From: an uncultured Alphaproteobacteria bacterium
Lineage (GTDB): Bacteria; Pseudomonadota; Alphaproteobacteria; Rs-D84
Assembly: GCA_944389645.1 (NCBI GenBank)
Contig: CALXMZ010000013.1
Coordinates: 1 to 51,318 of the forward strand
DNA: 51,318 nucleotides
Direction of reading: 5' to 3'
Made by a program: the position numbers and the translations under genes. The notes under the pieces are model-generated. The model worked only from the letters and a program-made list of their open reading frames with translations, was not told the DNA's origin and ran no database searches. Positions 3,759-44,130 of this stretch are shown here, piece after piece. Each line of letters starts with the position of its first letter. Positions within the stretch are counted from its first letter, which is position 1.

Positions 3759-4757
3759 ATGTTACTAAATCTAAAAATTTTTGCCGCATCTTTCATTATG
3801 CTATTCATTACAAATATTGCTTCCGCAACAACTTCTGCTAGCAATTATATGAATACAAATACTTACAATAATTTATACCCTTATATGAATAATACTATGC
3901 GAACTAAACTTAATCCTGGTACGACACCGTCAAATTCTAATGCTCAAATAAACGTCCTGACTAGAACAAAAAGCACTAATAATAATTCTTCCACAAGCGC
4001 AAGAAGCGTGGTACCAAGAACAACCTACTCGGCCCGAATAATTACCAACTCGACAAACAATAATAATTCCGCAACAAGCTCTAGATCCGCTACAGCTTCT
4101 TCCGCAAGAACTGCTATGCCAACAACATCAACAAACAGAAAAGTTGTGGCAAGATCAGGTACTAGCACAAATACTCAAAATGCATCTGCACGATCTAATA
4201 GAGGCGACGCGTCAACACTCGCGAACAGAAATGCTACAGGCGTTATAAAGTATGAAAGTACAGAATCAATACCTTCATCACGCTGTATGGCTGATTATAT
4301 AGAATGTATGAACGGTTACTGTGAAAGAGAAAATACAAAATACAACCGCTGCTATTGCAGTACAAAACTTGCACAGATTGACGCAAAATATCAAACAGAA
4401 ATTGATCAACTTATAAAAGAAATACTAATATTAAAAAGTACAAACAACTGGACCCAAGAAGAAATGGACGAATATTGGATGGAAATGATCGGCAAGTATA
4501 CTGGTGAGAATTCTTGGGAAAATTTAGAAAGTGCTCTTAATATTGATTGGTCTAGCACAGAAAGTAGAGTACGTGGGCAGCAGGCTTTTGTTACAGGTCA
4601 TACTTATTGCGTACAACATTTAAAGGGTTGTGCATATATGGCAAATAACTTAAGAGATGCATATCGTTCTGAGATTGCTCGTGACTGCACATCTTATGAA
4701 ACTTCACTACAGAAAGTAAAAAGTGTTGCAGAAAGTCTAGTGGAGTCTTACAAATGA
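3759..4757 (+). CDS. secreted Cys-signature protein (signal peptide, S/T/N/R-rich linker, Cys-motif domain); small paralogue of the 38809-41937 protein
   Basis: The N-terminal signal peptide ends ..ITNIASA. About 150 aa of low complexity follows, with recurring SAR/SxR units, and then SRCMADYIECMNGYCERENTKYNRCYCS. Confidence 0.8.
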   Translation: MLLNLKIFAASFIMLFITNIASATTSASNYMNTNTYNNLYPYMNNTMRTKLNPGTTPSNSNAQINVLTRTKSTNNNSSTSARSVVPRTTYSARIITNSTNNNNSATSSRSATASSARTAMPTTSTNRKVVARSGTSTNTQNASARSNRGDASTLANRNATGVIKYESTESIPSSRCMADYIECMNGYCERENTKYNRCYCSTKLAQIDAKYQTEIDQLIKEILILKSTNNWTQEEMDEYWMEMIGKYTGENSWENLESALNIDWSSTESRVRGQQAFVTGHTYCVQHLKGCAYMANNLRDAYRSEIARDCTSYETSLQKVKSVAESLVESYK

Positions 4758-5587
4758 AAACATTTATAGGTATCGAATACGGTCGCGGTGCGACAGCTAT
4801 TGCAACGGATAAAGGTCCAGCACTTGCACCAAAAGTAATAAAAAATATTTTCCCAGATAATAAATGGTTAATTGTCACGTCAGAACCATTTAATGCAGAA
4901 GAATGCAAAAAAGATAGATTTGGAGAAAACTATAAAATACAGAAAAAAACATATGAACAAACCCCCAAAAATCCGCATATAATGATAGGAGGTGACCATT
5001 CTTTAAATTTCGGTCATTTTACAGCTGTAGCAGACAGTATCCCTGATCAAGAATTGTGTTTAATATATATAGATGCCCACCTTGATATTCACACACCAGA
5101 AAGTTCACAAAAAGAAGCTTCTGGTTCCCCACACGGCACAAACGTAAGGGCTCTTATTGGTGAGGGAGATAAACGTTGGTTATCTTTACAAAAAAAGTCC
5201 CCTTCTCTGAAACCGGAAAATGTATTTTATTTAGGAAGTCGTTCTTATGAAAACGCAGAAATACAATTTGTAAAAAATAACAATATATTCATGCGTACAA
5301 CTTCTGAAATATCAACAAAAAAACTATTACAAGAATCTATACAAATAATTCGTAATAAAATAAAGAATAAACCTTTTATCGTGTCTTTCGATTTTGACGT
5401 ACTGGATCCTAACATATTTGATGAAGTATTAGTTCCAGAACCAAATGGTATATCTTTAAATACAGCAAAATATTTATTAAACGAATTCAAAGATGCATTA
5501 AGTTTTGAATTCGTAGAATATGCACCAAAAGATAAAAAATCTTGCCAAGAAATTGCAAAAACGCTAATTGAAATTTCTTTAAAATAA
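4754..5587 (+). CDS. arginase/agmatinase/formimidoylglutamase (ureohydrolase) family protein
   Basis: The Mn-binding motifs GGDHS, IDAHLDIH and SFDFDVLDP are present, together with SPHG. The start overlaps the upstream stop (ATGA). Confidence 0.85.
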   Translation: MKTFIGIEYGRGATAIATDKGPALAPKVIKNIFPDNKWLIVTSEPFNAEECKKDRFGENYKIQKKTYEQTPKNPHIMIGGDHSLNFGHFTAVADSIPDQELCLIYIDAHLDIHTPESSQKEASGSPHGTNVRALIGEGDKRWLSLQKKSPSLKPENVFYLGSRSYENAEIQFVKNNNIFMRTTSEISTKKLLQESIQIIRNKIKNKPFIVSFDFDVLDPNIFDEVLVPEPNGISLNTAKYLLNEFKDALSFEFVEYAPKDKKSCQEIAKTLIEISLK

Positions 5588-17523: not shown

Positions 17524-18327
17524 TCATTTATTAAAAAGTTGTGAAGCCATGCTACCGAAAGAAGACAAAGAAGAGCCCAAGCCTCCACCACCAGTAATTC
17601 CCTGAACCTGTTCCATAATACTTCCTGTATTTGTAGATTGCCCCATACTAGAAACCGTATTAGTTAAGAATTCACCCCACATAGCACGTTTCTTTGCGTT
17701 TAACTTAGAATCTGAACATTCTTCAACTTTAGCAGTTAATTTACCAACCATAGTTATTTCTTGAGCAGAAGTATAATCAGAATCGTAAAAATCTATCAAA
17801 TTGAAGATATCATATATATTGGACGCTGTTTTTTTCTCTTTATCCGAGCAAGAATTACTACCGTCAACACAATATGTTGCCACTGTAGCTTTAGGATAAA
17901 ACTCCCAAACCATACCTTCATCTGTAAAATACTCATAACATATATTATCTTCATTTGTAATTGCGGATAACATCAAAGAAGTTTTATAACCATCTGCAAC
18001 AACATCACATCTTTTTCCTAATCTAGCTTGAACTTCTTCTGCGCTCATAGAACCTGTTTTAGCCCATTCTTTTACAAGTTCATTTACAAAAGCAATTTCT
18101 TGACTGCTAGGTATACAATTACTTGTAAGTTCTTTCTGTTTTGCGCTCAGTTCTTTAACGCCTGCAATCAATCCTATAACAGTAGGCACAAGACTATTTA
18201 CCGTCGAACCAGATGAAGCTTCCTGAGTTGCAACAGGGGCGGCCTTTTTAATTGTTATTGCCCTGCAGTCTTTGCAACAAACAAAGCCGAAACATAAAAC
18301 CATAAAAAACAATAGATATTTTTTCAT
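17524..18327 (-). CDS. secreted Cys-containing hypothetical protein with G/S-rich C-terminal tail
   Basis: This 267-aa protein has a signal peptide, about 10 Cys and the tail ..GITGGGGLGSSLSSFGSMASQLFNK. I recognise no family. Confidence 0.75.
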   Translation of the reverse strand: MKKYLLFFMVLCFGFVCCKDCRAITIKKAAPVATQEASSGSTVNSLVPTVIGLIAGVKELSAKQKELTSNCIPSSQEIAFVNELVKEWAKTGSMSAEEVQARLGKRCDVVADGYKTSLMLSAITNEDNICYEYFTDEGMVWEFYPKATVATYCVDGSNSCSDKEKKTASNIYDIFNLIDFYDSDYTSAQEITMVGKLTAKVEECSDSKLNAKKRAMWGEFLTNTVSSMGQSTNTGSIMEQVQGITGGGGLGSSLSSFGSMASQLFNK

Positions 18328-20331: not shown

Positions 20332-20895
20332 CTATCTTATAGAACGCCTTAAAGTCGTAGTTCCTGTTCTCCGGATACTAGATTCTCTACTACCCGTTGT
20401 TGTTCCCTTTGAAACAGCACAAACCCATTCATCACCCTGTAATATGGCAGTTTCTCCTTCTGGACATTCCGGTTTTTCTAAACGCCACACAAAACAACTA
20501 CCCTTTTGATACGCTATATAAGTAGCGTTATCTGCACCAGCACGAGTATAAGCACCATACTCAGAATTCCAAACCCCAGGCGTTTCACCGCTACACCATT
20601 TTCTATCACCGAAACATTCAATACAATTATTTTTCGCGTCGCACAGCTCTACTGGTGCAGAAGTAGTTTTATAACCGCTTGCAGCATTTTTACCGTTTCC
20701 CATAGATTTACCAGTTTCTAGATCTCTACACCATAATTTCTGACACTCTGCCGCATCGACTCCATCTATATCAGAATGTGAAACCAAAATATACCCTGGA
20801 CCACACGAAGTAAACTTATCTGCAGAAAACCCCGAAAAAATGCAACCAATAGATATACAAATAGAATATAAAAACGAATAATAAATTTTTTTCAT
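20332..20895 (-). CDS. small secreted Cys-rich protein with S/T/R-rich C-terminal tail
   Basis: This 187-aa protein has a signal peptide, the motifs SCGPGY and ECPEGE, about 14 Cys and the tail GTTTGSRESSIRRTGTTTLRRSIR. Confidence 0.75.
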   Translation of the reverse strand: MKKIYYSFLYSICISIGCIFSGFSADKFTSCGPGYILVSHSDIDGVDAAECQKLWCRDLETGKSMGNGKNAASGYKTTSAPVELCDAKNNCIECFGDRKWCSGETPGVWNSEYGAYTRAGADNATYIAYQKGSCFVWRLEKPECPEGETAILQGDEWVCAVSKGTTTGSRESSIRRTGTTTLRRSIR

Positions 20896-25141: not shown

Positions 25142-25831
25142 TTATCTTGAATGTGACGGTATTATCTCACCGTTTTTTATTCTTAAAGTATTACCATATA
25201 ATTCCAATAAGTCTTTATGTGCTGACGTACCACTGATTTCCATACGTTCACATTCTTCAATATGTTCCAACCCCAAATTCGATAAATTAGGATTATGAGA
25301 ACAATCATAATGCAATATTTTTTTAGGTCCACCAACTAAAGATTCTATGTAATTAAAACCGCATTCTATCTTTTCCAGATTATATGGCGCACCATTTAAA
25401 GTTTTTAATTTATTAGCAATACAATTAAGACTTTTTAAATGTTTTAATTTTTTTATACCATCAAGATCTATCAAATCATTATGACAACAAATAAGATAAC
25501 TAAGATTTTCTGGTACCCATTTTAAAGTTTTTATTCTGTTCCAAGAACAATCTATAAGCTTAGATTCTTTTGGACAATATTGTAAATCCGATAACATATT
25601 AAAACTACAGATAAGGTAATATGCATAATATGGCGCACCTTTTAAACTTGTTAACCCGTTTCTAGAAATATCAAGTACCCCATGTACTTTAATTGTAGAT
25701 AAATCCGGTAATTCTTTTAAGTCCATATCAGATAAATCAAGATCACCTTTTCTAAAAAAATTTTTCGGTAAATTAAAAATATCGTACACTTTGCCTTCTT
25801 GCGTAAAATATCTTTTATTTTCATTTTTCAT
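25142..25831 (-). CDS. leucine-rich-repeat protein (Cys-containing ~21-23 aa repeats), paralogue 1
   Basis: The repeats have the form ..L.G.P.....L.C..N.L..L.. (for example LKGAPYYAYYLICSFNMLSDLQ and LNGAPYNLEKIECGFNYIESLVG). The likely start is MKNENKRYF at 25829-25831, preceded by an AAAGGA SD. There is no signal peptide. Confidence 0.75.
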   Translation of the reverse strand: MKNENKRYFTQEGKVYDIFNLPKNFFRKGDLDLSDMDLKELPDLSTIKVHGVLDISRNGLTSLKGAPYYAYYLICSFNMLSDLQYCPKESKLIDCSWNRIKTLKWVPENLSYLICCHNDLIDLDGIKKLKHLKSLNCIANKLKTLNGAPYNLEKIECGFNYIESLVGGPKKILHYDCSHNPNLSNLGLEHIEECERMEISGTSAHKDLLELYGNTLRIKNGEIIPSHSR

Positions 25832-26105
25832 ATATAAATCCTTTTTTGACCGAATATTTATAACAAACTTTTTTCTTTTGTCAACAAAAAAATATTTTGT
25901 CAAAAAACAGCTAAGAAAAAATCAACTACAAACAAACAGATAGACCGCATATTAATTTCTAAAATCAGGAATTTTTTCTATAAAAACGGTTCTATAAAAC
26001 AATTATTTTTCATATTTTTATTGAAATGATAACATCTCTATAATAAATTAAAGGAAACGACGAATTAATTGAAAAAACTTCTAAAAAATCTTTAAAAAAG
26101 AAGAA

Positions 26106-26615
26106 TTATCTAGTTTTTGATGTCCAAACCTTACCATTTTTTATTCTCAAGCGATTATAAAAAGGTTCATAAAAATTATAAATAAAATTATCAAAAAAAA
26201 TAAAATTATCACAATCAGACGGCATATAATCAAAATTTATTAGGTCGTTACCAGAACAGTCGTATACCGTTGCTTTTTTAGGACCATATTTTAAAGAGGT
26301 CAACCGATTACCACAACATAAAAACTCTTTTACACATTCAGGAGCCCCCAACAAACTTCTTAAATTACAATAAGAACAATCATATTCAGTGGCATATTTA
26401 GGACCATTTAACAAATTATAAAAATTATTATATGAACAATTAAAAATCCCCTGTACAACAATAGTTGATAAATTTGGTAAACAATTTAACCCCATATTAG
26501 ATATATCTAAATTGCCCTTTACTACAAACCCATTAGGTAAATTAAATATGTCGTATTTCTGACCATCCTGCACAAAATATCTTTTAGAAAGTTTTCTAGA
26601 CATTAATACACCCAT
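26106..26615 (-). CDS. leucine-rich-repeat protein, shorter paralogue 2
   Basis: It shares the N-terminal RYF.Q.G..YDIFNLP..F..KG.LD.S.M.L..LP.LSTI and the C-terminal LRIKNG.....S..R with paralogue 1. The start may be the second Met (26603). Confidence 0.7.
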   Translation of the reverse strand: MGVLMSRKLSKRYFVQDGQKYDIFNLPNGFVVKGNLDISNMGLNCLPNLSTIVVQGIFNCSYNNFYNLLNGPKYATEYDCSYCNLRSLLGAPECVKEFLCCGNRLTSLKYGPKKATVYDCSGNDLINFDYMPSDCDNFIFFDNFIYNFYEPFYNRLRIKNGKVWTSKTR

Positions 26616-26691: not shown

Positions 26692-26716
26692 AAAAAAGCG
26701 GATTGTCCGCTTTTTT
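26692..26716 (-). terminator. intrinsic terminator overlapping the ctpA stop codon
   Basis: On the minus strand the sequence reads taaaaaagcgga-caa-tccgctttttt. Confidence 0.6.
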
Positions 26717-28136
26717 ATTTTTTCTTAGGTTTATCGTTATCTTTGGTACTTTCTTTTTCTGCTTTTTCATCAACTTTATCATCAACTTCTTCTGAGAATT
26801 CTTCTATTTTTTCAATTCTTTTTTGTAATTTAGACATAGCGATTACCATATCCATACCTCGTTGCAACTGATAATCCAGAGCATCTTTTTCCTCGTCAGT
26901 TAATTCTTCATCATCTTCTTCTGATTTATTTGCTTTTTTATTCTTAGCATTTTCATTTTTCAAAGCATTTTTAAAAGAAGCTTCTGAATACATACTTTCT
27001 TTTTTTTCTAAGACTTCTACTTTACTTTGTAGAACTTCTACATCTGGTGTAATGCCTTCATTTTGAATTGAACGTCCACTAGGCGTATAATAACGTGCAA
27101 TAGTTATATGTATAGCCGTCCCATCTCCCAAAGGTTTCTGCTGTTGTACGCTTCCCTTTCCAAAGCTTTGACTTCCCATAACCAAAGCGCGCCCGTTATC
27201 TTGTAAGGCCCCTGCAACAATTTCTGAAGCAGATGCGGAACCATGATTTATTAACACGACAACAGGTTTACCTTTTGCAAGATCACCCTCTTTGGCATAA
27301 GATCGTTCAATATCTGTTTTATTTTTTCCTCTGGTAGAAACTATCTCACCGCCATCTAAAAACGCATCTGCAACTTCTATTGCAGCAGTCAAGTATCCTC
27401 CTGGATTATTACGCACATCTAAAACGTAACCTATAACATCTTTTTTTTCTAATTTTTCTAATGCCTCTTTCAATTCTTTAGCGGTTGTTGCTCCAAAATC
27501 AGAAATTCTTATATAACCAATTTTTTCGGCGTCTTCAGCCGCATCTGCCAGAGATTTCTCTTCATACTTTACAGAATCAACTTTTATTATTGCACGCTTT
27601 AAAGTCAAAGTTCTAGGTTCTTTCCCCTCAGAAACGATTGTTAGTTTAACTTTTGTTCCCGGACGCCCCTTCATTTTTTTGACGGCTTGGTTCAAAGTCA
27701 TATCAAAAACCTGCTCATCATCTATGTGAGTAATATAATCACCGGTTTTTATTCCCGCTTTATCAGCAGGCGTATCATCAATCGGAGAAATTACTCTTAC
27801 TGCCCCCCTATCACTTGTAATTTGAATTCCAAGCCCACCAAATTCACCATGTGATTTATCGTTAAATTCTTTAAAATCGTCCGCAGATAAATAAGAAGAA
27901 TGCGGATCAAGAGCACCAAGCATACCATTCATAGCAGCTTCAAGCATCTTTTTTTCATCAACTTCTTCTACGAATTCTTCACGAGCAGTCTCAAAAACCA
28001 ACGCTAGTTTTTTTAATTGTTCATATATTTGTTCATCAGTTAGATGCTCAATAGGTTCTTCTTTTTTTGTTTTATCTGCCGCAAAAGTCGCAACAGGGAT
28101 AACTAAAAACAAAAAAACAAATATTTTCTTTAACAT
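26715..28136 (-). CDS. ctpA: carboxy-terminal processing protease (S41 family)
   Basis: A signal peptide is followed by a PDZ segment (GLGIQIT..VISPIDDTPADKAGIKTGDYI). The catalytic Ser context is GSASASEIVAGALQD and the Lys context is FGKGSVQ. The C-terminal tail is K/E-rich. Confidence 0.92.
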   Translation of the reverse strand: MLKKIFVFLFLVIPVATFAADKTKKEEPIEHLTDEQIYEQLKKLALVFETAREEFVEEVDEKKMLEAAMNGMLGALDPHSSYLSADDFKEFNDKSHGEFGGLGIQITSDRGAVRVISPIDDTPADKAGIKTGDYITHIDDEQVFDMTLNQAVKKMKGRPGTKVKLTIVSEGKEPRTLTLKRAIIKVDSVKYEEKSLADAAEDAEKIGYIRISDFGATTAKELKEALEKLEKKDVIGYVLDVRNNPGGYLTAAIEVADAFLDGGEIVSTRGKNKTDIERSYAKEGDLAKGKPVVVLINHGSASASEIVAGALQDNGRALVMGSQSFGKGSVQQQKPLGDGTAIHITIARYYTPSGRSIQNEGITPDVEVLQSKVEVLEKKESMYSEASFKNALKNENAKNKKANKSEEDDEELTDEEKDALDYQLQRGMDMVIAMSKLQKRIEKIEEFSEEVDDKVDEKAEKESTKDNDKPKKK

Positions 28137-28229: not shown

Positions 28230-28258
28230 TTGACAAAAATAACATTGTGTACTATATT
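28230..28258 (+). promoter_or_regulatory. putative promoter of the Fic gene
   Basis: The sequence reads TTGACA (28230-28235), a 17-nt spacer, then TATATT. Confidence 0.35.
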
Positions 28259-28282
28259 ATTGTAATAATGATAGGAAAAAAT

Positions 28283-29068
28283 ATGAAAAAGCCTCAACAA
28301 AAATCGGAATATGCAGAAAGTATCATATATAATATAAAAAAGAACGCAGATATTCGTTATGTAATTAGTAAAAATCACGAAAAAATTTGTACCTTATTAA
28401 ACGATAAAGCAAAAAAATTCTTAGAAGTTGACTGGATCCGTTATCAACTACACAAAGAAGCAGAAATTCTGATGCGAATTCCGTACATAACGAAAAGTAA
28501 AGAAAAAAATTTATGGCTTGATTATACGAATATAAAAAATATTGAGAAAGCGTTTGATTATATTCGTAGTCCTTCAGCTTTAAAAACGAAACTTACCCAC
28601 CTTGAAATAATTGACATACACCGTAGACTTGCAAATAAAACAAAAATAGAACCAGGGAGGTACCGTATTTCAAATGGCGTTTTCTTAATGGGGACAGACA
28701 TTTCAACTCCGGACTATAATAGAATAAACTTTATAATGGATGACATCGCTTTTCGTCTAACGAATGAAGAATCTCATAAAGATTATCTTACGCGTGCACT
28801 AGATTTTCATTATGAAATGTTTGCCGCCCAACCATTTGACGATTTTAATAAACGAACAGCAAGAGTCGTAATGAATTGGTTTTTATTGCAACATCAATGT
28901 GAACCAATTTTATTCAACTATAAAACAGATTACAAAAACTATGCGCTGGCATTAATTGCACGTGCCCATGGTGACTGTCGTACATATAATAAGTACATGC
29001 TTAACTGTCTTGTAAGAACGCAAGAAAACATCATTAAAATATTAAAAAAACATGCTATTAGCCGCTAA
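28283..29068 (+). CDS. Fic/DOC-fold protein with degenerate active-site motif
   Basis: ..HYEMFAAQPFDDFNKRTARVVMNWFLLQHQCEPILF.. aligns to the Fic core ..H..F..IHPF.DGNGR..R.....L. However, the motif reads QPFDDFNKRTAR, with Q in place of the catalytic H. The probable start is the ATG at 28283, preceded by an AGGAAA SD. Confidence 0.7.
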   Translation: MKKPQQKSEYAESIIYNIKKNADIRYVISKNHEKICTLLNDKAKKFLEVDWIRYQLHKEAEILMRIPYITKSKEKNLWLDYTNIKNIEKAFDYIRSPSALKTKLTHLEIIDIHRRLANKTKIEPGRYRISNGVFLMGTDISTPDYNRINFIMDDIAFRLTNEESHKDYLTRALDFHYEMFAAQPFDDFNKRTARVVMNWFLLQHQCEPILFNYKTDYKNYALALIARAHGDCRTYNKYMLNCLVRTQENIIKILKKHAISR

Positions 29069-33669: not shown

Positions 33670-35511
33670 ATGAAATTATCAAAAACGATCATCATAAGCG
33701 TAATAACATCAACGCTAATTACAAGAAACGTCATTGCTTTTGATTACAAAAGCTGTTCAGAAGTTTCATATTATGAAGAAAACAAAGAAAAATGTGATTT
33801 AAACGAAAGCTTTACAAATACCGCTTTAAAAACAATAAGTGGTATTGCTTTAATTGGTGGCGCAGCAGCATTAATAAACCTAGCAAGCAATAAATCTTTT
33901 TCTCATTCTAACGAAGAGAACTTTTACGTTCAACCCACAATTTCTACATATAATATGGTTGGGGGCGACGTTGAATCCGTCCATTTGGCAGAATCAATGA
34001 GTTCTCAGGATTATATAAAAAATGCAGACCAATATAATGATATAAGACTGGCGTATTCTTTGGCTCGCGGTTTTACAGGCAAAGGCTCTGAAATAGCAAT
34101 TTTAGATGCAGGTCTTGATAGCATACATGGTCAAGCAGTTGCAGCTATCGCGTCTGGTCCAATTGCACCAGATGCGAACGTAAGCTCATATAAAATTGCA
34201 AACAATTTAGATTTCATATCCTACAAAGAAATAGGAGAAATAATTAATTCAAATCAGACGGCAAATATTTTTAATTCTAGCTGGTCGGTATCAATGAGCG
34301 CTTCAGCTTTAAAATCTCGTAACCAACTGATACAACTAACAGACAGAAATTTTGTAGACAGTTTATCAAATGCAGCGATAAAACGCGATGCAATATTTGT
34401 TTGGGCAGCAGGTAACGATTCTAAATCTCAAAGTAGCGCCTTATCTGCGATACCAATTGTTATGCCGGAATTAAAAGGTCATTTTATAAATGTAGTGGCA
34501 TGGGATAGTTCAACAGGTCAATTAGCAGAATATAGCAACAAGTGCGGTATAACGAAAGAATATTGCATAACAGCCCCAGGCAGCAATATAAATACAGGCA
34601 ACGGTCAGAAAAGTGGTACAAGTTTTGCAGCTCCGATAGTATCAGCTGCGATTGCTGTACTTAAAGAGGCTTTCCCATATATGTCATCTCCAGAAATCAC
34701 TGAATTACTGTTCAGTACTGCCAGAGATCTTGGCACACCAGGTATCGATGAGATATATGGTCATGGCATGCTAGATTTAGAACGTGCGACCAGACCTGTT
34801 GGAGCAAATTTAGTTCCAATCAAAGATACAAATACCATGCTACCGTTACGTGCTGCTAATATATCTGCACCAATTGCAGAAAAAATAAAATCGGAAAATA
34901 TAACTTTCGCATTTTTTGATAGCTTTGGTAGAAATTTTGATACAAAACTATCCGATAACATATCAAGCTATTCTATGGGGAAAGCATTTAAAAAATTAAC
35001 CTCACAAGAAGAAATAATCTATTTTTCTTTAAACAACCTTGAATTCGGATTAAAAAGCACTGATTTATTTTTAAGTGATGGTTTTCTGCAAACTAAAGAT
35101 GAGAATTTACTTAGTTTTATAGGTACTTACAATGAAATAAAAATTAACGAAATCACATTATTTAACCGTTTACGAATAGGTATTTCCAGCCCTAAACCAG
35201 AAACAGATTCATTAATAACAGACTTTTCTAATATATATACAACATCGTTTAGCACAGGTATCAAATTCAAAGATTTTACTTTTAGTTTAGCAATACCAGA
35301 CACAATAATTTATGGGGGAATGAGTTTACAAGTACCATACGGACAAGATACTAACCGACATATACTATACAAAAAATACTCAATAGACTTAAGAAGTCAA
35401 CCGTCAATAGAATATTCTTTATCATACAGAAATATTACGACAGGCTTTATAGACAACCCGTTTAGTAAAAACGAATTCTATATAATAACAAAAGGTAAAA
35501 TAAATTTTTAA
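33670..35511 (+). CDS. subtilisin-like (S8) serine protease with autotransporter-type C-terminal barrel
   Basis: The catalytic triad contexts are AILDAGLD (Asp), HGQAVAAIASG (His) and GTSFAAPIVSAAIAVL (Ser). The C-terminal ~230 aa is beta-rich and ends ..KGKINF. A signal peptide is present. Confidence 0.85.
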   Translation: MKLSKTIIISVITSTLITRNVIAFDYKSCSEVSYYEENKEKCDLNESFTNTALKTISGIALIGGAAALINLASNKSFSHSNEENFYVQPTISTYNMVGGDVESVHLAESMSSQDYIKNADQYNDIRLAYSLARGFTGKGSEIAILDAGLDSIHGQAVAAIASGPIAPDANVSSYKIANNLDFISYKEIGEIINSNQTANIFNSSWSVSMSASALKSRNQLIQLTDRNFVDSLSNAAIKRDAIFVWAAGNDSKSQSSALSAIPIVMPELKGHFINVVAWDSSTGQLAEYSNKCGITKEYCITAPGSNINTGNGQKSGTSFAAPIVSAAIAVLKEAFPYMSSPEITELLFSTARDLGTPGIDEIYGHGMLDLERATRPVGANLVPIKDTNTMLPLRAANISAPIAEKIKSENITFAFFDSFGRNFDTKLSDNISSYSMGKAFKKLTSQEEIIYFSLNNLEFGLKSTDLFLSDGFLQTKDENLLSFIGTYNEIKINEITLFNRLRIGISSPKPETDSLITDFSNIYTTSFSTGIKFKDFTFSLAIPDTIIYGGMSLQVPYGQDTNRHILYKKYSIDLRSQPSIEYSLSYRNITTGFIDNPFSKNEFYIITKGKINF

Positions 35512-36407
35512 TTTAATAAAAATTTTGTTATATAGTTAAAAGATATCCCAAATATCAAATTACTACCATATACACTAGCGCCTTTTGACTTAGCTAATCT
35601 ATACTGAGCATACGGTCCCATAGTAAAACCACCCCACAAATTTGTATCCATTCTTATTATAAAATTAAAATCTCGCTCTAAATCTGTAGATATATATTCA
35701 GAATAAACGAAATATTGTCGATAATAACTATCCAAAGAAAACCTTACACCTTTTCTTAATTCATATTCTAACCTTCCCCCAACTCCCAAACCTAGCTTAC
35801 TATTTTGCTTATGCGCATAAGTAAAATCGTACTCGTATATACCTACCAAATACAAACTTTTAATAATATCATGATCAAACAAAGAAAACCCCATACTAAA
35901 TCTATTTACGTTTTGCCGAGGATTTTCATCGCTATTAGTAAATTGTGTCTCGTAAGCCTCACGAAATGTTGGCCCAAGTTTTAAACCGAAAAAACTCCAA
36001 CAATTATAAGAAAAATTACTATATAACAAAATTTTATCCAAATTCTCATCTTTTACTGGGGGCGCATTATAAGGTTTTAATGTAGTTTTACTATATTCCA
36101 TAAACAAACCGTTATCCCAATTAAATTTTTCTTTAACATATTCTAAAACAGTATCAAAAACGCCCTTTATATATTCCTGACTGGTCGCACTTAAAGAAGA
36201 AACAGGAGAATCTAAATAATATTCAGAATTATTCACCTTCGTTTTAGAAAAATCTAAACCAATTCGTCTTATCGATAGAATTAAATTTGACTTATTAGAA
36301 TTTATCTTTTGGATATCTTCTGCAAATACAACTGTATAAGGGCAAAAAACCAGCGCAAAAATTACAAATAACTTTTTCAATTTTGAACCCCTAATATATA
36401 AACACAA
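35508..36407 (-). CDS. outer-membrane beta-barrel protein, DUF3078-like (tentative)
   Basis: A signal peptide is followed by alternating aromatic/hydrophobic strands. The true start is possibly the TTG at 36380 (KKLFVIFALVF..). The family assignment is from memory only. Confidence 0.65.
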   Translation of the reverse strand: MCLYIRGSKLKKLFVIFALVFCPYTVVFAEDIQKINSNKSNLILSIRRIGLDFSKTKVNNSEYYLDSPVSSLSATSQEYIKGVFDTVLEYVKEKFNWDNGLFMEYSKTTLKPYNAPPVKDENLDKILLYSNFSYNCWSFFGLKLGPTFREAYETQFTNSDENPRQNVNRFSMGFSLFDHDIIKSLYLVGIYEYDFTYAHKQNSKLGLGVGGRLEYELRKGVRFSLDSYYRQYFVYSEYISTDLERDFNFIIRMDTNLWGGFTMGPYAQYRLAKSKGASVYGSNLIFGISFNYITKFLLN

Positions 36408-36465: not shown

Positions 36466-37080
36466 CTATTTCCATATACGCAAAACGCCATCTTTATTAT
36501 AATACTTCCACCCCTTTTCAGCGACGGCAATAGTAAAAGCGTTACGATTAGAAACGGGTATTTCCACTGTTATTTGATTACCATTAATATATTTTGTTAA
36601 CATTTCTATATTATCTTCTCTTGCAATTTTATTAATCTCTATCCAATCAGCAAGCTTATCTTTCATAATAACTTGGACAAGGAATACATCAAATTCTGTT
36701 TCATCTGGTAACCAATTTTGAATATTATTATCAGTTAACCATTTTTTTGCATTTTTTCTATCTATTTCCATAGAAATGTTTGCTGAATATGCAGAGGAAG
36801 ACAACTTTTCACCTTCTATCATAGATGAAGCAACTAAATTTGTTAAATCATCAACGTTAGCATTTTTTAACGTTTCATTTAATTGCTCTGGATCAGCATA
36901 TTGAGACAAAACATCTTTAATTACTTGTTTCCTAGCCTCATCAAAAGCGATATTTTTCGCATTAGCTGCCGTATCACTTGTAATATTTACATAAGCACTA
37001 CTAGACAAGTTTGCGGCATAAGCGCTTTGAAACAGCCCCACGCATAAAAAAGCGAATAAAAAGTGTTTTATTGTTAACAT
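36466..37080 (-). CDS. secreted hypothetical protein, DUF2066-like (tentative)
   Basis: The signal peptide ends ..FQSAYA. ..NITSDTAANAKNIAFDEARKQVIKDVLSQY....YSANISMEIDRKNAKKWL resembles the DUF2066 pattern. The gene starts 4 nt after the stop of the upstream barrel gene. Confidence 0.6.
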   Translation of the reverse strand: MLTIKHFLFAFLCVGLFQSAYAANLSSSAYVNITSDTAANAKNIAFDEARKQVIKDVLSQYADPEQLNETLKNANVDDLTNLVASSMIEGEKLSSSAYSANISMEIDRKNAKKWLTDNNIQNWLPDETEFDVFLVQVIMKDKLADWIEINKIAREDNIEMLTKYINGNQITVEIPVSNRNAFTIAVAEKGWKYYNKDGVLRIWK

Positions 37081-38559: not shown

Positions 38560-38661
38560 TTTATTCCCTTCTTATTAAATTTATACTTATTAAGTTATTT
38601 TATCACAAAATTGTTGAAAAAAAAACTCTTCTTTGTAATATTAGCAAAACAAAATCAGTTT

Positions 38662-38746
38662 GCGGATATGGCGAAATTGGTAAACGCACAGCACTAAGGA
38701 TGCTGTGGAGAAATCCTTGGGGGTTCAAGTCCCCCTATCCGCACCA
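38662..38746 (+). tRNA. tRNA-Leu (class II, long variable arm); anticodon reads AAG; CCA encoded
   Basis: The sequence is GCGGATATGGCGAAATTGGTAAACGCACAGCACTAAGGATGCTGTGGAGAAATCCTTGGGGGTTCAAGTCCCCCTATCCGCACCA. The anticodon stem is CAGCA/TGCTG and the loop is C-T-A-A-G-G-A. Confidence 0.9.
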
Positions 38747-38808
38747 AAAAATTATTTTTTCTTCTTGCTCGTCATTTTATAAAAATGCTAACATTCTTTA
38801 ATATAAGG

Positions 38809-41800
38809 ATGAAAGGAATAAAATTATTTTTTTCTGTATGTCTTGTATTACTAAGTTTTTGCGTAGCAAAAGCCGAAGAAACAAGTGATACAGCGCGTGC
38901 CGCTACTAGGCGAAGCTCTACTACAACCGTTACATCATCAAACCGTCAGAAAAGTGCACAAGCCCAGAACAATTATACAAACAATACCGCAACGGTATCA
39001 CGAACGACGAATAACGTATTAAAATCGCAACCACAAGTAAGCGAACGTTCAATCAGCTCGCGCTCTGGTTCAGTTGTAACAGATAACGGTTCTAGAAACG
39101 CTAATGTAACCAGCGATCAGAGCGTATCGGCAAGAACAACATCTAACGTTCAAACAAGAACGATAACCTCAACTGCAAACGACGCATCGATTCGTAATAA
39201 TAAAAGTTCTGCTCGCAGTGCCCAATCTATATCCAGGGCAACCCAAAATTCTTTAACGCAACAACCGTCGACTTATAGGGATACAAAAACAATATCCAGA
39301 AGTTCTATTATACCGACGGGCGTAGGAAACATTAATACTAAAAGCCAATCACAAACATCCGCATCTCGTCGTAATACGGTAACGGGGTCTAATAGATTAT
39401 CACGCAGTGCGATTACGGCAGAAGAAATAATGAACCGAGACTATACAAAATGTCGCGAAGTATATTACGAATGTATGGACGAATTTTGCGCGAACAAAGA
39501 TTCTCAATTAAGGCGGTGTGCCTGTTCATCTAGGACGAAAGAATTTGATAGCATAAAGAAACAGCTAAACGAAGCGGAAGACAAGCTATTAAATTTCAAC
39601 CAACGTTTATTAACCGTTAACATGGATAAAGAAGATGCAGAAGCATTATTTGAAGCGACAGAAGGAGAACTTGCGTTTCAACAAGAAGATAAAACCGATT
39701 CAAAGAAAATGCTTGATGAAATTACAGAGAAGTTAAACACGACATTCAGTGATAATAATTTTAATACAAATTTATCTCCTATATCGTTATCTTTAAATGT
39801 GGATGCAGCATTTGATAATATAGATTCACTAATGGGTTCATCTACTACGACAAAATCTGGGACAGAATTATATAGTGCGGCTTTGCCTATCTGTCGCGAA
39901 ATCGCGTTAGAGATATGTAGTCAAGACGAACTAGATATTGTAGAAAGCGGTTACCAGATGGCGATTGAACAGGACTGCAATACAGTTGCAAAAACTTATG
40001 AATCTCAGCAAGACCAAACACTAGAAAAGATTCGTGAAGGTAGTGCTTTATTAGATATGTCTAGGCTTGATATATATCAGGAACGCAATTCTGACGACAT
40101 CTTAACTTGTAAGAAAAAGATGTTAGATATGTTAACCGATTCTACGGTATGTGGGGATAATCTTGGGAAATGTCTTGATATAACGGGTCAATACATAGAT
40201 CCGTCCACTGGTGAAGCAATTTTAACGACGAACTTAGCCAACTTAAACAATCTTATTTCACGTCCAGAAGGTGATCAGAAATGGACGAATGTTCCTGGTA
40301 ACGAAAAATTTGTTTCATATTTAAACTCCAAGAAGAAATATTTAGAACCAGCGATGGAAAACTGTCAGGATATATCTGATTACGTATGGGATACGTTTAT
40401 CGAAGATGCCTTAGCTCAAATAAAACTTGCCCAAGAAAGCAAACTTGAAGACATTAGGCAAAGTTGTACGACGTTAACTACGCAATGTTTAAACGATTCT
40501 GCAGACTCGCTAGAAGATTTTGATGCACGTTCCTTATCAATATTTGGTGTAATTGCCGACAAAACTGTAAAAGAAATGTGTTCAGAGGTACAGAATGCAT
40601 GTACGGCATTATTGGAAGAAACTACTGGTGGTACGGAATGGACAGAAGGCATCACAGAAATTGCTACCAGCAAGACCTATGAAACGATACTTCAAACGTG
40701 TCGCGAAGTTGGTAGGTCTTGCATAATACAAGCATGTAAATCTGTATCTGGTAATTTTGCATTATGCGAAGACATTCAACTTTCTGTTAACCGCAAATCA
40801 ATCATTAATCGTACATCTTGCTGGGACGAGGTTGTAAACTGCGTCAAAGAAGCCGGTACAGAATCAATAAATAACATAATTACAAATCTTACAGACAAAG
40901 GCACTTTAAACCCGAACAGTAACGATCTATATTCGACGCTTTATGGCAAAGAAATACAACTAACAAATAATTCATCGGCTTGTTTAACAACAGACGACGC
41001 AAACTGTTTATATGACATATGCGCCCAAGAATGTGGTTTAGATACAGACGCATCATACACGAAAACGAATTCTATAGATTGCAAAATATGCAGACTTGCG
41101 GAAAGAGTATGGGGTAATTGCGAAAGCCACCCAGCAACGATAATGGGTAAAACGATTACTCACAACCAGATAAAAATGCCGATATCTTCTGGTACAACAG
41201 AAACAGACACATTATTATCATGGTTTGCAAAAAACACTGGTACAGAAAATGAGGCAGATAGTTGTCGTGATACGTCATGCGGACCAGGCCAAGTTGCACA
41301 ATATGATAAAGATCAAGGTACAACAATATGTTTACCAGCAAATATGTTTACAGATGATGACGTATATTGTCCAATAGGATATGCACAAATAGAAATCTTT
41401 AAAGATCCAAAAACTACTAATTGTTGCAAGTTATATGACGGAACAGACGACATACAAGGTAAGACAGATACACTTGGTCATTGTTGTTTTTTATCAAATT
41501 TGTCTAATCACAAACTTTATTGGGGATCGGACACATCAGAAGATTATTACGTAGATCCAACTAGCACAACAGAAGTAGGAAATACCAACGTCAACTTGTG
41601 TCTACCAGAAAATGCGAAATTTGTTGTAGCGACAAATAATCAATATATATTCTGTGTCGGTGAAATAAAGACGAACGAAGCCGATCAGAACGTGTCAGCC
41701 GACTTTCCAAACGGGAAAACTATCGAATGTAACGGTCAATACATAATAGTAAACAAAAGCAATAAAATTTATGAAATTCCTAACTATAATGAAGGCGCAA

Positions 41801-41937
41801 CAAAACCAGAATTTCCAAAAAATTATTATAACATTGGTGAAAATACCATTTGTGAGTATGACGAACAAAACAAATCGTGGACAGGTCCAGGATGTAGAGA
41901 ATGGGATCTAACAAACTGGTTAATAAGATACAAATAA
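38809..41937 (+). CDS. giant secreted Cys-rich protein (about 1040 aa), large paralogue of the 3759-4757 protein
   Basis: The signal peptide is MKGIKLFFSVCLVLLSFCVAKA. About 200 aa of S/T/N/R-rich linker follows, then TKCREVYYECMDEFCANKDSQLRRCACS and ~800 aa with many Cys, including SCGPG and CPIGY. The track start at 38785 is an alternative. Confidence 0.85.
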   Translation: MKGIKLFFSVCLVLLSFCVAKAEETSDTARAATRRSSTTTVTSSNRQKSAQAQNNYTNNTATVSRTTNNVLKSQPQVSERSISSRSGSVVTDNGSRNANVTSDQSVSARTTSNVQTRTITSTANDASIRNNKSSARSAQSISRATQNSLTQQPSTYRDTKTISRSSIIPTGVGNINTKSQSQTSASRRNTVTGSNRLSRSAITAEEIMNRDYTKCREVYYECMDEFCANKDSQLRRCACSSRTKEFDSIKKQLNEAEDKLLNFNQRLLTVNMDKEDAEALFEATEGELAFQQEDKTDSKKMLDEITEKLNTTFSDNNFNTNLSPISLSLNVDAAFDNIDSLMGSSTTTKSGTELYSAALPICREIALEICSQDELDIVESGYQMAIEQDCNTVAKTYESQQDQTLEKIREGSALLDMSRLDIYQERNSDDILTCKKKMLDMLTDSTVCGDNLGKCLDITGQYIDPSTGEAILTTNLANLNNLISRPEGDQKWTNVPGNEKFVSYLNSKKKYLEPAMENCQDISDYVWDTFIEDALAQIKLAQESKLEDIRQSCTTLTTQCLNDSADSLEDFDARSLSIFGVIADKTVKEMCSEVQNACTALLEETTGGTEWTEGITEIATSKTYETILQTCREVGRSCIIQACKSVSGNFALCEDIQLSVNRKSIINRTSCWDEVVNCVKEAGTESINNIITNLTDKGTLNPNSNDLYSTLYGKEIQLTNNSSACLTTDDANCLYDICAQECGLDTDASYTKTNSIDCKICRLAERVWGNCESHPATIMGKTITHNQIKMPISSGTTETDTLLSWFAKNTGTENEADSCRDTSCGPGQVAQYDKDQGTTICLPANMFTDDDVYCPIGYAQIEIFKDPKTTNCCKLYDGTDDIQGKTDTLGHCCFLSNLSNHKLYWGSDTSEDYYVDPTSTTEVGNTNVNLCLPENAKFVVATNNQYIFCVGEIKTNEADQNVSADFPNGKTIECNGQYIIVNKSNKIYEIPNYNEGATKPEFPKNYYNIGENTICEYDEQNKSWTGPGCREWDLTNWLIRYK

Positions 41938-41955: not shown

Positions 41956-41984
41956 TTGACAAAAAGTCTTTTTTATACTATATT
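41956..41984 (+). promoter_or_regulatory. putative promoter of the 42048 lipoprotein gene
   Basis: The sequence reads TTGACA (41956-41961), a 17-nt spacer, then TATATT. Confidence 0.35.
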
Positions 41985-42530: not shown

Positions 42531-42556
42531 AAAAAACCGGTCATGCCGGTTTTTAT
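42530..42556 (+). terminator. intrinsic terminator
   Basis: The hairpin aaaaaaccgg-tcatg-ccggttttt is followed by atttt. Confidence 0.65.
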
Positions 42557-42618: not shown

Positions 42619-44130
42619 ATGAAAACATTTAAACTATTTAATCTTTTATTATATGTTTTTTTTATTTATGAATTTACCACTACAAATCTTTATGCCAATG
42701 TGTTTGACGAAACACTTTGTTCAATGCATCTTTGTTCAAATTCAAGCCACCGAGACGGTTGTTATGAAACCCCTTATGATAAAGATCCAATAACGCATTA
42801 TTCTATATTATTACCAGCTGGATTTTATGGCAATGGCAACTATGTGAATAACTGTGGGAGTATAAATTCATTTTTACTCCCACATCAAGATAACAAACCT
42901 GAAGCAATCACAAGTACAGAGATTTCCGTAACAACAAGCTCAGAAACCTATACAACATACCGATGCTACTCCTATGAAGCCAAACATATAGAACAAATAT
43001 GTTATATACATTCAGGGGCTTTTGGCGATTGTCCATTTGAGATAAAATGTGAAGACAATTATTATTGGGTGCCAGGACCACAACATGTAGGTTCTGCATA
43101 TTCAGTAGGATCATGTCACCCATGTAAGTGGAACCAAAAAAATAACGGAAACGACAAAAAATATTATACAATGACAAACTATGGGAAATATAGACTTGCG
43201 GATGGCCAAGACAGCTCAAACTGCCAACTTGACTACAATCATGTAGCAAAAGAAGAAAGCTTCGATCGCGCCAAAATAGACAACGAAATTGGAACCCAAA
43301 TTACATGCTCCTATAAAGAAAACATAAAATTCAACGCGTATCTGAATTTATCATCCTCCCCGTGTGAATTTTACCCCATTGGTGAACTATCTATAGATCT
43401 AGATGATCAAGGAAAATTCAAAAGTAATAAGATTGAGATTCCCAAACAAATTGGAAATATATGGTACAAAAAATTTAAAGGTTTTTCTACTTTATGCAAT
43501 TCTGACTCTATAATACTTTTTGATTCAGACGGTGTACCTGCCCCTAATGAACAACTTGACTCTATTTTTGAAAAATCAGATAATCTAACTGATACAATCA
43601 ATATCTATGCAGTTTGGACAAATCATACATATTCTACATATACTTTAAAAGTTGATGGTGGTGAAAACAAAACAATACAAAAAGCAGGTTGTGAAATTGA
43701 TCCAAATAAACCATGCAAAATAGAAATAACTAACGTAATACAAGCAGGGAAAGAAATAAGTGAAGAAAACATAACAATTTCTATAAATGGTTCAAATTCA
43801 TCATCAGAAGTACCAGGATTAAAGATTCAAACAAATGATAATAAAACGACTCTATCTATCACACCAAATGAAGACTTATTTAAGAAATGTTTAGATTCCA
43901 AATGTACAGCAACTGTTACATTAGGCTACTCAGAATGTCCAAAAGGTTATTATTGCACGCAAGGTATAAAGCACCCCTGCCCAATCGGAACAACAACTAA
44001 CGAAACAGGCAAGTCAAGCATAACAGATTGTAAAATGATGACAGGAGAAAACGGAACAATTTTAAAAGATAATTATGGTAAATTTTATCTACCAGGAAAC
44101 GGTAGTTATATCGGTATCAAGCAAAATTAA
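42619..44130 (+). CDS. secreted Cys-rich protein with a Listeria-Bacteroides-type repeat and a C-terminal eukaryote-like Cys module
   Basis: The 503-aa protein has a signal peptide. ..KGFSTLCNSDSIILFDSDG...DTINIYAVWT resembles the Flg_new/InlB B-repeat. The C-terminal ECPKGYYCTQGIKHPCPIGTTTNETGKSSITDCK resembles the ephrin-receptor-like (GCC2_GCC3) pattern C.CP.G.Y....CP.GT...G.S....C. Confidence 0.8.
   Translation: MKTFKLFNLLLYVFFIYEFTTTNLYANVFDETLCSMHLCSNSSHRDGCYETPYDKDPITHYSILLPAGFYGNGNYVNNCGSINSFLLPHQDNKPEAITSTEISVTTSSETYTTYRCYSYEAKHIEQICYIHSGAFGDCPFEIKCEDNYYWVPGPQHVGSAYSVGSCHPCKWNQKNNGNDKKYYTMTNYGKYRLADGQDSSNCQLDYNHVAKEESFDRAKIDNEIGTQITCSYKENIKFNAYLNLSSSPCEFYPIGELSIDLDDQGKFKSNKIEIPKQIGNIWYKKFKGFSTLCNSDSIILFDSDGVPAPNEQLDSIFEKSDNLTDTINIYAVWTNHTYSTYTLKVDGGENKTIQKAGCEIDPNKPCKIEITNVIQAGKEISEENITISINGSNSSSEVPGLKIQTNDNKTTLSITPNEDLFKKCLDSKCTATVTLGYSECPKGYYCTQGIKHPCPIGTTTNETGKSSITDCKMMTGENGTILKDNYGKFYLPGNGSYIGIKQN

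Follow-up and report, generated by a model that had tools for sequence, protein, structure and literature searches.

Exported cysteine-rich proteins that share a precise signature form a family restricted to genome-reduced gut Alphaproteobacteria

Do two cysteine-rich proteins encoded on one stretch of bacterial DNA belong to the same family, and what would such a family do for its host? The stretch of ~51 kb (the window; all coordinates count from its position 1) comes from an Rs-D84 / Candidatus Enterousia-type gut alphaproteobacterium with a genome of <1 Mb. It encodes a large and a small protein, for which an earlier note on this DNA had described the same architecture. The description was accurate: in both proteins a Sec-type signal peptide is followed by a basic, T/S/A/R-rich stretch (180 and 140 aa, respectively) and then by a cysteine signature (Table 1). 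Sequence and profile comparisons identify the two as homologous proteins (paralogues) of common descent. They belong to an undescribed, lineage-restricted family of exported Cys-rich proteins with a precise signature, and we regard it as very probable that this is a real, exported, disulfide-type family with the architecture given above.

A regular-expression scan of all six frames for C-x6-C-x4-C-x9-C-x-C returned two sites in the whole window, at nt 39451-39525 and 4284-4358, and none elsewhere; both cysteine strings quoted in the earlier note were present at these positions. When the large and the small protein were compared by BLASTP, the motif region was aligned (E 6e-7). Outside the motif, the pairwise identity was only ~18-25%, which speaks for a match by chance or by composition of two Cys-rich open reading frames (ORFs) without common origin. 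The profile comparisons reduced the probability of such a coincidence to almost nil. In hhalign, the orthologue families of the small and the large protein aligned over 154 columns (Prob 81%, E 1.2e-5), and the alignment paired the small protein's whole C-terminal domain with the first ~205 post-linker residues of the large one, including three later Cys. A hidden Markov model (HMM) built from the small family alone was run against 3687 ORFs of ≥100 aa from 83 related loci. It matched 80 large-family ORFs at E<1e-3 (median of all reported large-ORF match rows 4e-5); besides the large ORFs only two true small orthologues, and no unrelated ORF, were matched. The profile A2, which comprises 170 positions of the shared module, was used for an exhaustive search over 1.84 billion cluster representatives (clusters at 50% identity). 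This search yielded 606 clusters at E≤1e-3, of which 273 reached ≤1e-10 and 100 reached ≤1e-30. The gap between the large and the small protein is bridged by these clusters, which have the same eight Cys columns throughout. The identical spacing of the signature therefore reflects a real relation, as had been proposed. No further family member was found in the window when the family HMMs were run against all six-frame ORFs.

For the definition of the family, a motif census was made on 351 retrieved family sequences. The signature was present in 297 of them; the 54 without it appear, mostly or without exception, to be fragments or to have lost their N-terminus, and 32 begin at a Met within the motif. 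The consensus derived from 217 distinct signatures reads C-x3-[YF]-x2-C-M-[DNE]-x-[FY]-C-x8-R-C-x-C-S-x-[RK]; the Arg is conserved to 97%, and the Met, the Ser and each of the five Cys to 100%. In every N-terminally intact member retrieved, the signature is accompanied by a signal peptide and a basic S/T/A/R-rich stretch. Both window proteins show these elements together with three later Cys, the last of them in D-C. Members belong to a small class (~290-430 aa, 8 Cys), a large class (~700-1200 aa, 23-56 Cys) or a giant class (1143-1759 aa, 70-107 Cys), and the basic tail measures 50-230 aa across the family.

Searches with the large protein gave >900 homologues; the 120 best listed were 51-70% identical, nearly all over ≥92% of the query. 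The protein was encoded in at least 291 species genomes when one genome per GTDB species was scanned. For the small protein, 76 orthologous matches with 50-84% identity were obtained. The 80 best-scoring genomes are all uncultured metagenome-assembled genomes (MAGs) from the gut. Most are labelled Candidatus Enterousia, Alphaproteobacteria or Rickettsiales, and their hosts are humans, chickens, ruminants, rodents and termites. Synteny was counted over 80 related loci (loci of relatives are labelled L001 etc.). The earlier note had suspected a lineage-specific system, and this is supported by the 606 clusters, in which every named member stems from an uncultured gut alphaproteobacterial or "Rickettsiales" MAG. 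The family is so far confined to genome-reduced gut Alphaproteobacteria, namely the order Rs-D84 / Candidatus Enterousia and allied "Rickettsiales" MAGs. Rs-D84 / Candidatus Enterousia are uncultured and common in human, livestock, rodent and bird guts; Rs-D84 genomes are smaller than 1 Mb, lack respiration and most biosynthetic pathways, and carry unexplained "hypothetical membrane-bound proteins", and a dependence on partner cells was proposed for the lineage (PMC12306168). A phage, defence or mobile origin was rejected, as there were no PHROGs or PADLOC matches, no relatives were found on IMG/VR viral contigs, and the GC content was flat across the large gene.

The signature had been reported as unplaceable in any known family, and all our searches agreed with this. 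The curated libraries were Pfam-A 2025, NCBIfam 20.0, PHROGs v4 and PADLOC 2.0. In Pfam, no family was matched at E≤1 by the large, the small or a third, 187-aa Cys-rich protein of the window. NCBIfam returned noise only (e.g., RadD with 22.7 bits versus a cut-off of 720), and PHROGs and PADLOC gave no match for the family proteins. The profiles A1 and A2 found nothing at E≤0.05 among PDB sequences (hmmsearch). The outcomes that would have spoken against a new family were thus both absent: no known-domain match was obtained, and the motif is present in homologues beyond the two ORFs.

Structure prediction pointed in the same direction. In the following, "core" numbering refers to the residues after the low-complexity region of the large protein, core 1-450 corresponding to nt 39421..40770. 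With close orthologues only, AlphaFold2 (AF2) gave a predicted local distance difference test score (pLDDT) of ~45 for the helical half and of 70-90 for the C-terminal half, the latter being helical to ~core 510 and beta-rich from ~620 to 838. A rerun of core 1-450 with 128 diverse members (alignment A3) gave an all-alpha model with a pLDDT of 87.2 and a predicted template modelling score (pTM) of 0.69. Helices of up to 55 residues were predicted, at core 168-222, 319-367 and 404-440, with a disordered loop at 109-135. Foldseek found no neighbour of this helical model in the PDB (best E 4, template modelling (TM) score ~0.1), and the helical region is, as modelled, a fold without known neighbour. 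For the full-length model, the best PDB match was Kelch (E 0.015, TM ~0.1, root-mean-square deviation (rmsd) 18 Å), and the best E in the BFVD viral library was 0.047. A Kelch-type beta-propeller was top in both libraries for the beta-rich C-terminal part but, at E 0.015-0.05, TM ~0.1 and rmsd ~18 Å, is at best a weak lead.

Two further folds share features with the module. As in the N-terminal disulfide knot and coiled coil of fibrinogen, a Cys cluster lies directly before long helices, and fibrinogen chains were the sole PDB sequence matches of the module profile over that region (E 0.076-1.6). These values are not significant and are typical of coiled-coil composition, Foldseek gave no fibrinogen match, and the monomer model is confident already (pTM 0.69), so that an oligomer is not required; we therefore rejected a fibrinogen-like knot. 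In twin Cx9C / CHCH hairpins, helices are likewise pinned by spaced Cys, and the signature has one C-x9-C. Size, Cys pattern and compartment differ, however, and there was no Pfam CHCH match.

The helical part, core 1-450, is common to all large-type superfamily members: in phmmer, distant large-type members aligned over core 1 to ~445 only (E 1e-52 to 1e-79) and then continued with different C-termini. Among Enterousia-type orthologues, the mean major-residue frequency was ~0.83 over core 1-480; it was 0.86 at core 441-480 and then 0.36-0.61 from ~core 481 to 838. The N-terminal 480 core residues are hence very strongly conserved, and the family is not fast-evolving as a whole. A second copy of the C-x6-C-x4-C-x9-C spacing is present near the end of the helical region (Table 1). 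An internal duplication of the signature module found no statistical support: the N-module and the rest of the protein aligned with an E of only 0.21 in hhalign.

Both proteins carry export signals of one type. We took 38809 as the start of the large gene because the database entry P0001 and the orthologues begin at MKGIK (start MKG), and because some database entries with farther-upstream starts run through a tRNA gene. The coordinates 38809-41937 given earlier for this gene contain the ORF but fit 1042 aa; the 1050 aa quoted with them are counted from the ATG at 38785. The cleavage sites, between CVAKA and EE in the large and between NIASA and TT in the small protein, follow the small-x-small rule. 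Neither protein has a lipobox, a twin-arginine motif or a further hydrophobic segment (KD19 maximum 0.84 past aa 40). With regard to the lipobox [LVI][ASTVI][GAS]C, the large protein has LSFC with Phe at -1, the signal peptide of the small protein is without Cys, and orthologues of the large protein lack the signal-peptide Cys, e.g., P0002 with ...LFSFHGAIA. The n-regions MKGIK (large) and MLLNLK (small) contain no RR that would indicate the twin-arginine (Tat) pathway. A motif of the Brucella type, in which an N-terminal Ala-Asp is reportedly linked to covalent peptidoglycan attachment, was rejected, because A-x-A cleavage is predicted to leave mature proteins that begin with D-D or E-E. No match to type V autotransporters or two-partner secretion (TPS) proteins was found in Pfam, the AF2 secondary structure contains no barrel, and the Pom-like barrel protein encoded next to the large gene gave no POTRA match in Pfam.

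Directly after the signal peptide, the large protein has an acidic cap; behind the cleavage site, the consensus of the family reads A.ADD..D.ARAATRR. The stretches that follow are rich in T/S/A/R/N and nearly devoid of acidic and aromatic residues in both proteins. Across the family, the basic region has a median length of 173 aa, a net charge of +18 and a composition of T22 A16 S15 R12 %, and this composition is kept although the tail sequence is not. The folded remainder of the large protein is strongly acidic (net -62, isoelectric point (pI) 4.4), and the folded part of the small protein has a net charge of -7. The earlier note had suggested a common low complexity in four envelope proteins of the window. 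A basic S/T/R segment is indeed shared by the two family members and the 187-aa protein, which has it in its tail, but the Pom-like protein of 491 aa is of another type: after its signal peptide it carries a nearly uncharged Q/N/S/Y-rich stretch of ~80 aa. Long S/T/N/Q/R-rich stretches occur in three proteins of the window only (large, small and Pom-like), and basic S/T/A/N/R segments, across all six frames, are confined to the two family members and the C-terminal end of the 187-aa protein, apart from one antisense ORF.

In the large protein, 38 of 42 Cys are ≥98% conserved, and this is also true for 18 of the 22 Cys in its variable C-terminal half. The number of Cys past the signal peptide is even in 154/182 large (mode 42) and 83/92 small (mode 8) proteins. 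The eight Cys of the module are essentially never lost, and a search for co-loss found one natural variant only. Since the Cys are invariant and even in number in a substrate of Sec rather than Tat, they probably form structural disulfides. Alternatively, and independently of the location of the protein, the Cys clusters may bind a metal such as Zn, and/or the basic region may be a pro-peptide that is cleaved off. The anaerobic habitat, the lack of a respiratory chain and the lack of a Dsb gene in the window would agree with this, C-x-C and close-set Cys are compatible with Zn sites, the window encodes exported proteases (an S8 subtilase and the S41 protease CtpA), and a basic tail opposite an acidic body resembles charge-neutralising pro-regions. 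We nevertheless consider this alternative quite unlikely. Even Cys counts with nearly all Cys conserved over ~800 residues are the pattern of structural disulfides, a Sec-type signal would not carry a cytoplasmically assembled cofactor, and the signature has no conserved His/Asp partners. Moreover, the conserved length and composition of the tail, and a similar C-terminal tail in another family, argue for a function in the mature protein.

The genomic neighbourhood suggests a link of the large protein to the cell envelope. The large protein is encoded by a core, syntenic gene beside a porin-like cluster. The order DUF3078-like gene (-), 204-aa gene (-), Pom-like gene (-), tRNA-Leu (+), large gene (+) was conserved in about 64-71 of the 80 loci, together with the genes beyond the large gene that are described below; the cluster of Pom-like, 204-aa and DUF3078-like genes lay divergent from the large gene in about 64-69 loci. 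In L064, the region is rearranged, yet the large gene still adjoins the Pom-like and 204-aa genes. The large protein is very likely a major envelope component, and the family probably serves to build or decorate the cell envelope.

With these neighbours, a periplasmic structural scaffold has to be weighed: a disulfide-rich layer, or a strut from the outer membrane to the peptidoglycan, that would be associated with the porin. Peptidoglycan or the inner membrane would then be the target of the tail, and the Pom-like porin the partner of the body, in a way functionally comparable to the chlamydial OmcB/OmcA layer or to Lpp/Pal-type tethers. As the main rival of the model favored below, this is possible if rather doubtful. 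It would account for the missing outer-membrane export device or anchor and for the extreme conservation of the helical half, as expected for an envelope-internal partner. The conserved position beside a porin of the Protochlamydia outer-membrane protein (OMP) family and other OMP-like genes would also suit a scaffold, as would several other Cys-rich exported envelope proteins in the window, including a Pal/OmpA-like lipoprotein with 12 Cys. On the other hand, Rs-D84 genomes retain normal peptidoglycan genes, which makes a substitute layer unneeded (PMC12306168). The head is variable and is replaced by extracellular adhesin-type repeats in some relatives, and tandem arrays of very different lengths elsewhere are typical of surface families. 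Nor is there a sequence or fold relation to OmcB, or any Pfam match whatsoever.

By function, OmcB may still be the nearest analogue. OmcB/OmcA and the large protein have in common Sec export, a very high Cys content and a basic segment at the N-terminus of the mature form, and both are assigned to the envelope of a host-associated bacterium. For both, envelope stabilisation and/or adhesion by charge can be presumed, and the gene described here adjoins a Pom-family porin. OmcB-type repeat domains are detectable in Pfam as DUF11. The window proteins gave no Pfam or NCBIfam match at E≤1 save noise and have no sequence similarity to OmcB/OmcA, and the conserved part is predicted as an all-alpha rod instead of beta-rich repeats, so that membership in the OmcB type was not supported. 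The basic segment is also longer (140-180 aa versus a short motif), and the host retains its peptidoglycan genes (PMC12306168).

We favor, with a probability of roughly 45%, a tether-stalk-head protein of the envelope or surface, with the basic tail as tether, the helical region as stalk and the variable C-terminal half as head. After Sec export, the Cys would form intramolecular disulfides, 4 in the small and 21 in the large protein, and these would produce a rigid, protease-resistant helical rod and head. Positive charge near a Sec cleavage site constrains export, and the acidic cap would keep this charge off the Sec machinery. The basic tail (+14 to +18) would tether the acidic body (-62) non-covalently to an anionic envelope polymer; candidate partners are lipopolysaccharide, peptidoglycan and neighbouring copies of the protein. 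A like tail on the unrelated 187-aa protein would make it a lineage-wide retention device, and this idea gains some support because the basic segments of the window are confined as described above. The conserved rod would act as a stalk or assembly module, while the variable head would contact the outside, be it host mucus, particles or partner cells; some relatives appear to build this head from recognised extracellular adhesin-type repeats. The small protein would be a head-less version of the base module and may co-assemble with the large one or cap it.

Several observations weigh against this model. The protein has no recognisable domain for translocation across the outer membrane and no recognisable barrel, lipid anchor or sorting signal, and it may therefore stay in the periplasm. 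An exposed adhesin would not usually be conserved as highly as the N-terminal 480 residues are. The usual DsbB route of disulfide formation depends on quinones; the lineage, however, is without a respiratory chain, and a Dsb gene did not turn up in the window. In addition, the C-terminal half of the large protein itself matches no adhesin repeat family in Pfam, the porin adjacency is missing in the distant lineage L083, and the tail would be read as a tether from its charge and distribution.

The relatives are informative with regard to the head. C-termini of the distant members P0280, P0311 and P0315 matched the Pfam family Ephrin_rec_like above threshold (1.9e-8, 2.9e-6 and 1e-5), and one of these C-termini also matched the Listeria-Bacteroides surface repeat (3.8e-6). 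Ephrin_rec_like (PF07699) and furin-like repeats, as in the Giardia VSP/HCMP-type proteins, resemble the window proteins in their short disulfide hairpins and C-x-P-x-G-[YF]-type strings, and the Giardia proteins are likewise Cys-rich, exposed proteins of anaerobic gut organisms. However, the ~48-aa repeat PF07699 was found in the C-termini of distant members only and not at E≤1 in the large and the 187-aa protein of the window. The signature and the helical region are unrelated to these repeats and have no CXXC periodicity, and a transmembrane anchor is lacking.

Tandem arrays of paralogues were found in L061 (four genes in ~11 kb), in L083 (three), a "Rickettsiales" MAG with 49% GC, and in L084 (at least five). 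Beside the arrays of these three lineages lies a gene for a ~240-260-aa Cys-rich exported protein (...KCY...NCWGxKIIC...), which is conserved with ~31% identity and E 1e-27 to 1e-70; it has no homologue in the window and is unrelated to the signature family. Two paralogues, L083 7380-9401 (-) and L061 3969-6086 (+), share a glycine-zipper-like hydrophobic C-terminal segment, AAGGLAAGASAGTM.TPGWGTAIG..VG.VGG, and end in KEFCQELESCEDVNM; the array neighbours end in the related RNCHxC...C.DI.M. The glycine-zipper-like segment may be a membrane-insertion or sorting element.

One of the paralogues contains a sub-threshold Bacteriocin_IIc-like glycine-rich segment, which bears on another explanation, namely a factor released from the cell. 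As a toxin, a bacteriocin-like agent or a nutrient scavenger, the protein would use its tail to target anionic surfaces of other cells. A soluble exported protein without anchor would fit, a disulfide-rich, protease-resistant design would suit the gut lumen, and a partner-dependent lifestyle was proposed for the lineage. Still, such a factor is very unlikely: the bacteriocin match was below threshold and lies within the glycine zipper, no library revealed a toxin, enzyme or immunity-like domain, and the family was absent from viral contigs (IMG/VR). Polymorphic toxins also behave differently from the large gene, which is a single-copy core gene that keeps its synteny and is under strong purifying selection in at least 291 species. 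A more ambitious version of the tether-stalk-head model is in our view unlikely as well, if somewhat less so. According to this version, the protein would be a building block of an unseen surface structure, in which a disulfide-stapled stalk of a new fold, an arginine-rich tail anchor and a swappable Cys-rich head would serve attachment to partner cells or host surfaces, the tail being a lineage-specific retention signal.

As in the window, all 9 Enterousia-type loci checked (L001, L006, L008, L028, L034, L049, L059, L067 and L069) have a tRNA-Leu gene immediately before the large gene and in the same orientation; its anticodon is gag in L069. A co-transcription of tRNA-Leu and the large gene is plausible, because a promoter-like site is located upstream of the tRNA gene and no terminator-like site was found between the tRNA and the large gene. 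Beyond the large gene follows a variable stretch, in which a lipoprotein and a 503-aa Cys-rich protein may be encoded, and then Pth (-), a small OMP barrel (+) and PolA (+). The coordinates of the main features are summarised in Table 1.

Table 1. Positions of the two family members, their parts and neighbouring features in the window (positions in related loci carry the locus label).
Feature	Position	Strand	Remarks
Large ORF	38785..41937	+	1050 aa counted from first ATG
Large family member	38809..41937	+	1042 aa, start MKGIK; 42 Cys in folded part
Large protein, Sec-type signal peptide, aa 1-22	38809..38874	+	MKGIKLFFSVCLVLLSFCVAKA then EETSD; sequence reading; sole segment with KD19>1.6
Large protein, basic T/S/A/R/N-rich disordered region, 180 aa	38875..39414	+	recurring S-A-R / S-x-R; net +16, pI 11.9
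Large protein, family signature	39451..39525	+	CREVYYECMDEFCANKDSQLRRCAC (C-x6-C-x4-C-x9-C-x-C); six-frame scan, family census
8-Cys helical module common to small protein, core 1-205	39421..40035	+	hhalign, small-only HMM, combined alignments
Conserved all-alpha region (predicted), core 1-450	39421..40770	+	AF2 model, phmmer, conservation
Second C-x6-C-x4-C-x9-C copy	40699..40767	+	CREVGRSCIIQACKSVSGNFALC, also beginning CREV; Cys 427/434/439/449 all invariant
Variable Cys-rich C-terminal half ("head")	40771..41934	+	AF2, conservation drop
SCGPG	41275-41289	+	in C-terminal half of large protein
CPIGY	41368-41382	+	in C-terminal half of large protein
Small family member	3759..4757	+	332 aa
Small protein, signal peptide, aa 1-23	3759-3827	+	cleavage between NIASA and TT
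Small protein, basic low-complexity region, 140 aa	3828-4247	+	net +14, pI 11.9
Small protein, 8-Cys module	4248-4754	+	signature at 4284-4358
187-aa Cys-rich exported protein gene	20332..20895	-	12 Cys
Basic S/T/R tail at C-terminus of 187-aa protein	20335..20415	-	TTTGSRESSIRRTGTTTLRRSIR; tail arginines conserved in its family consensus
DUF3078-like gene	35508-36407	-	conserved cluster headed by Pom-like gene
204-aa exported protein gene	36466-37080	-	conserved cluster headed by Pom-like gene
Pom-like outer-membrane protein, 491 aa	37084..38559	-	Pfam PF17251 at 1.8e-12; divergent from large gene
Promoter-like site	38614-38641		upstream of tRNA-Leu
tRNA-Leu(aag)	38662..38746	+	62 nt upstream of large gene, same strand
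Strong promoter-like site TTGACA-17-TATATT	41956-41984		between large gene and lipoprotein gene
Bidirectional terminator-like hairpin	42532-42554	- / +	AAAAACCGG...CCGGTTTTT; follows lipoprotein gene downstream of large gene
Array-neighbour Cys-rich protein	L083 12875-13612; L084 6373-7152; L061 241-954	+; +; -	

Modules of the large protein had been suggested to recur in the 187-aa protein. The strings themselves exist (SCGPG and CPIGY in the one, SCGPGY and ECPEGE in the other), but homology had no statistical support. A relation of the 187-aa protein to the C-terminal part of the large protein was rejected at a hhalign Prob of 15.6% (E 0.0017) and a BLASTP E of 0.22, and the confidence of the alignment was limited to the SCGPGY stretch, the one shared hexapeptide.

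The stop of the small gene is overlapped by 4 nt by an arginase-family gene (4754-5587, +) with intact GGDHS, DAHxD and SxDxDxxDP motifs, which matched TIGR01229 at 124 bits, under the cut-off. This pairing is retained in L081/L082 (relative ~63% identical). As a family-wide rule, the coupling to arginase was rejected: in the more distant L085, the small-type member adjoins an asparaginase on the other strand.

Several other genes were noted in the window, which by its genes and low GC content (~34%) belongs to an anaerobe (PFOR, enolase, Rho, SSB, EF-Ts, S2, TyrRS, PolA, LptB/C, CarD, Pth). The genes at 17524-18327 (-), 42619-44130 (+), 15862-17436 (-) and 20332-20895 (-) encode further exported Cys-rich proteins: three without family assignment (267 aa and 10 Cys; 503 aa and 22 Cys; 187 aa and 12 Cys) and the Pal/OmpA-like lipoprotein with 12 Cys. 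The envelope proteome of the host appears to be unusually Cys-rich. A 1675-aa exported protein (8895-13922, -) has 2 Cys, is rich in G/N/S/I/T and gave no Pfam or NCBIfam match; it may be a giant beta-helical adhesin. It had a match in 1 of the 80 related loci, which are centred on another region. Two leucine-rich repeat (LRR)-like Cys-rich proteins without evident signal peptide are encoded together with a Fic-domain protein (25142-25903 (-), 26106-26615 (-) and 28247-29068 (+)). The first LRR-like protein matched Pfam LRR_4, and the second was judged by eye and had no Pfam match. The three genes would suit an effector-like set of a host- or partner-associated bacterium. The exported proteases are located at 33670-35511 (S8 subtilase) and 26715-28136 (S41 CtpA).

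The large protein is >50% identical across at least 291 species and makes up ~0.3% of so small a genome. With its gene directly downstream of a tRNA gene and beside the porin cluster, it is an obvious candidate for a function in cell contact. The signature and the domain boundaries are precise enough for a Pfam/InterPro entry, and for the helical region there is a confident predicted model of a fold without known neighbour. The family also raises the ideas of an arginine-rich tether and of disulfide formation in an anaerobe without respiratory chain. As a protein family it is new; its general type, that of Cys-rich proteins of the envelope or surface, is familiar. If its function is a generic stabilisation of the envelope, it would still be a useful marker family for the lineage, of modest general interest; the interest would be greater if anchoring by the arginine tail or attachment to partners were demonstrated.

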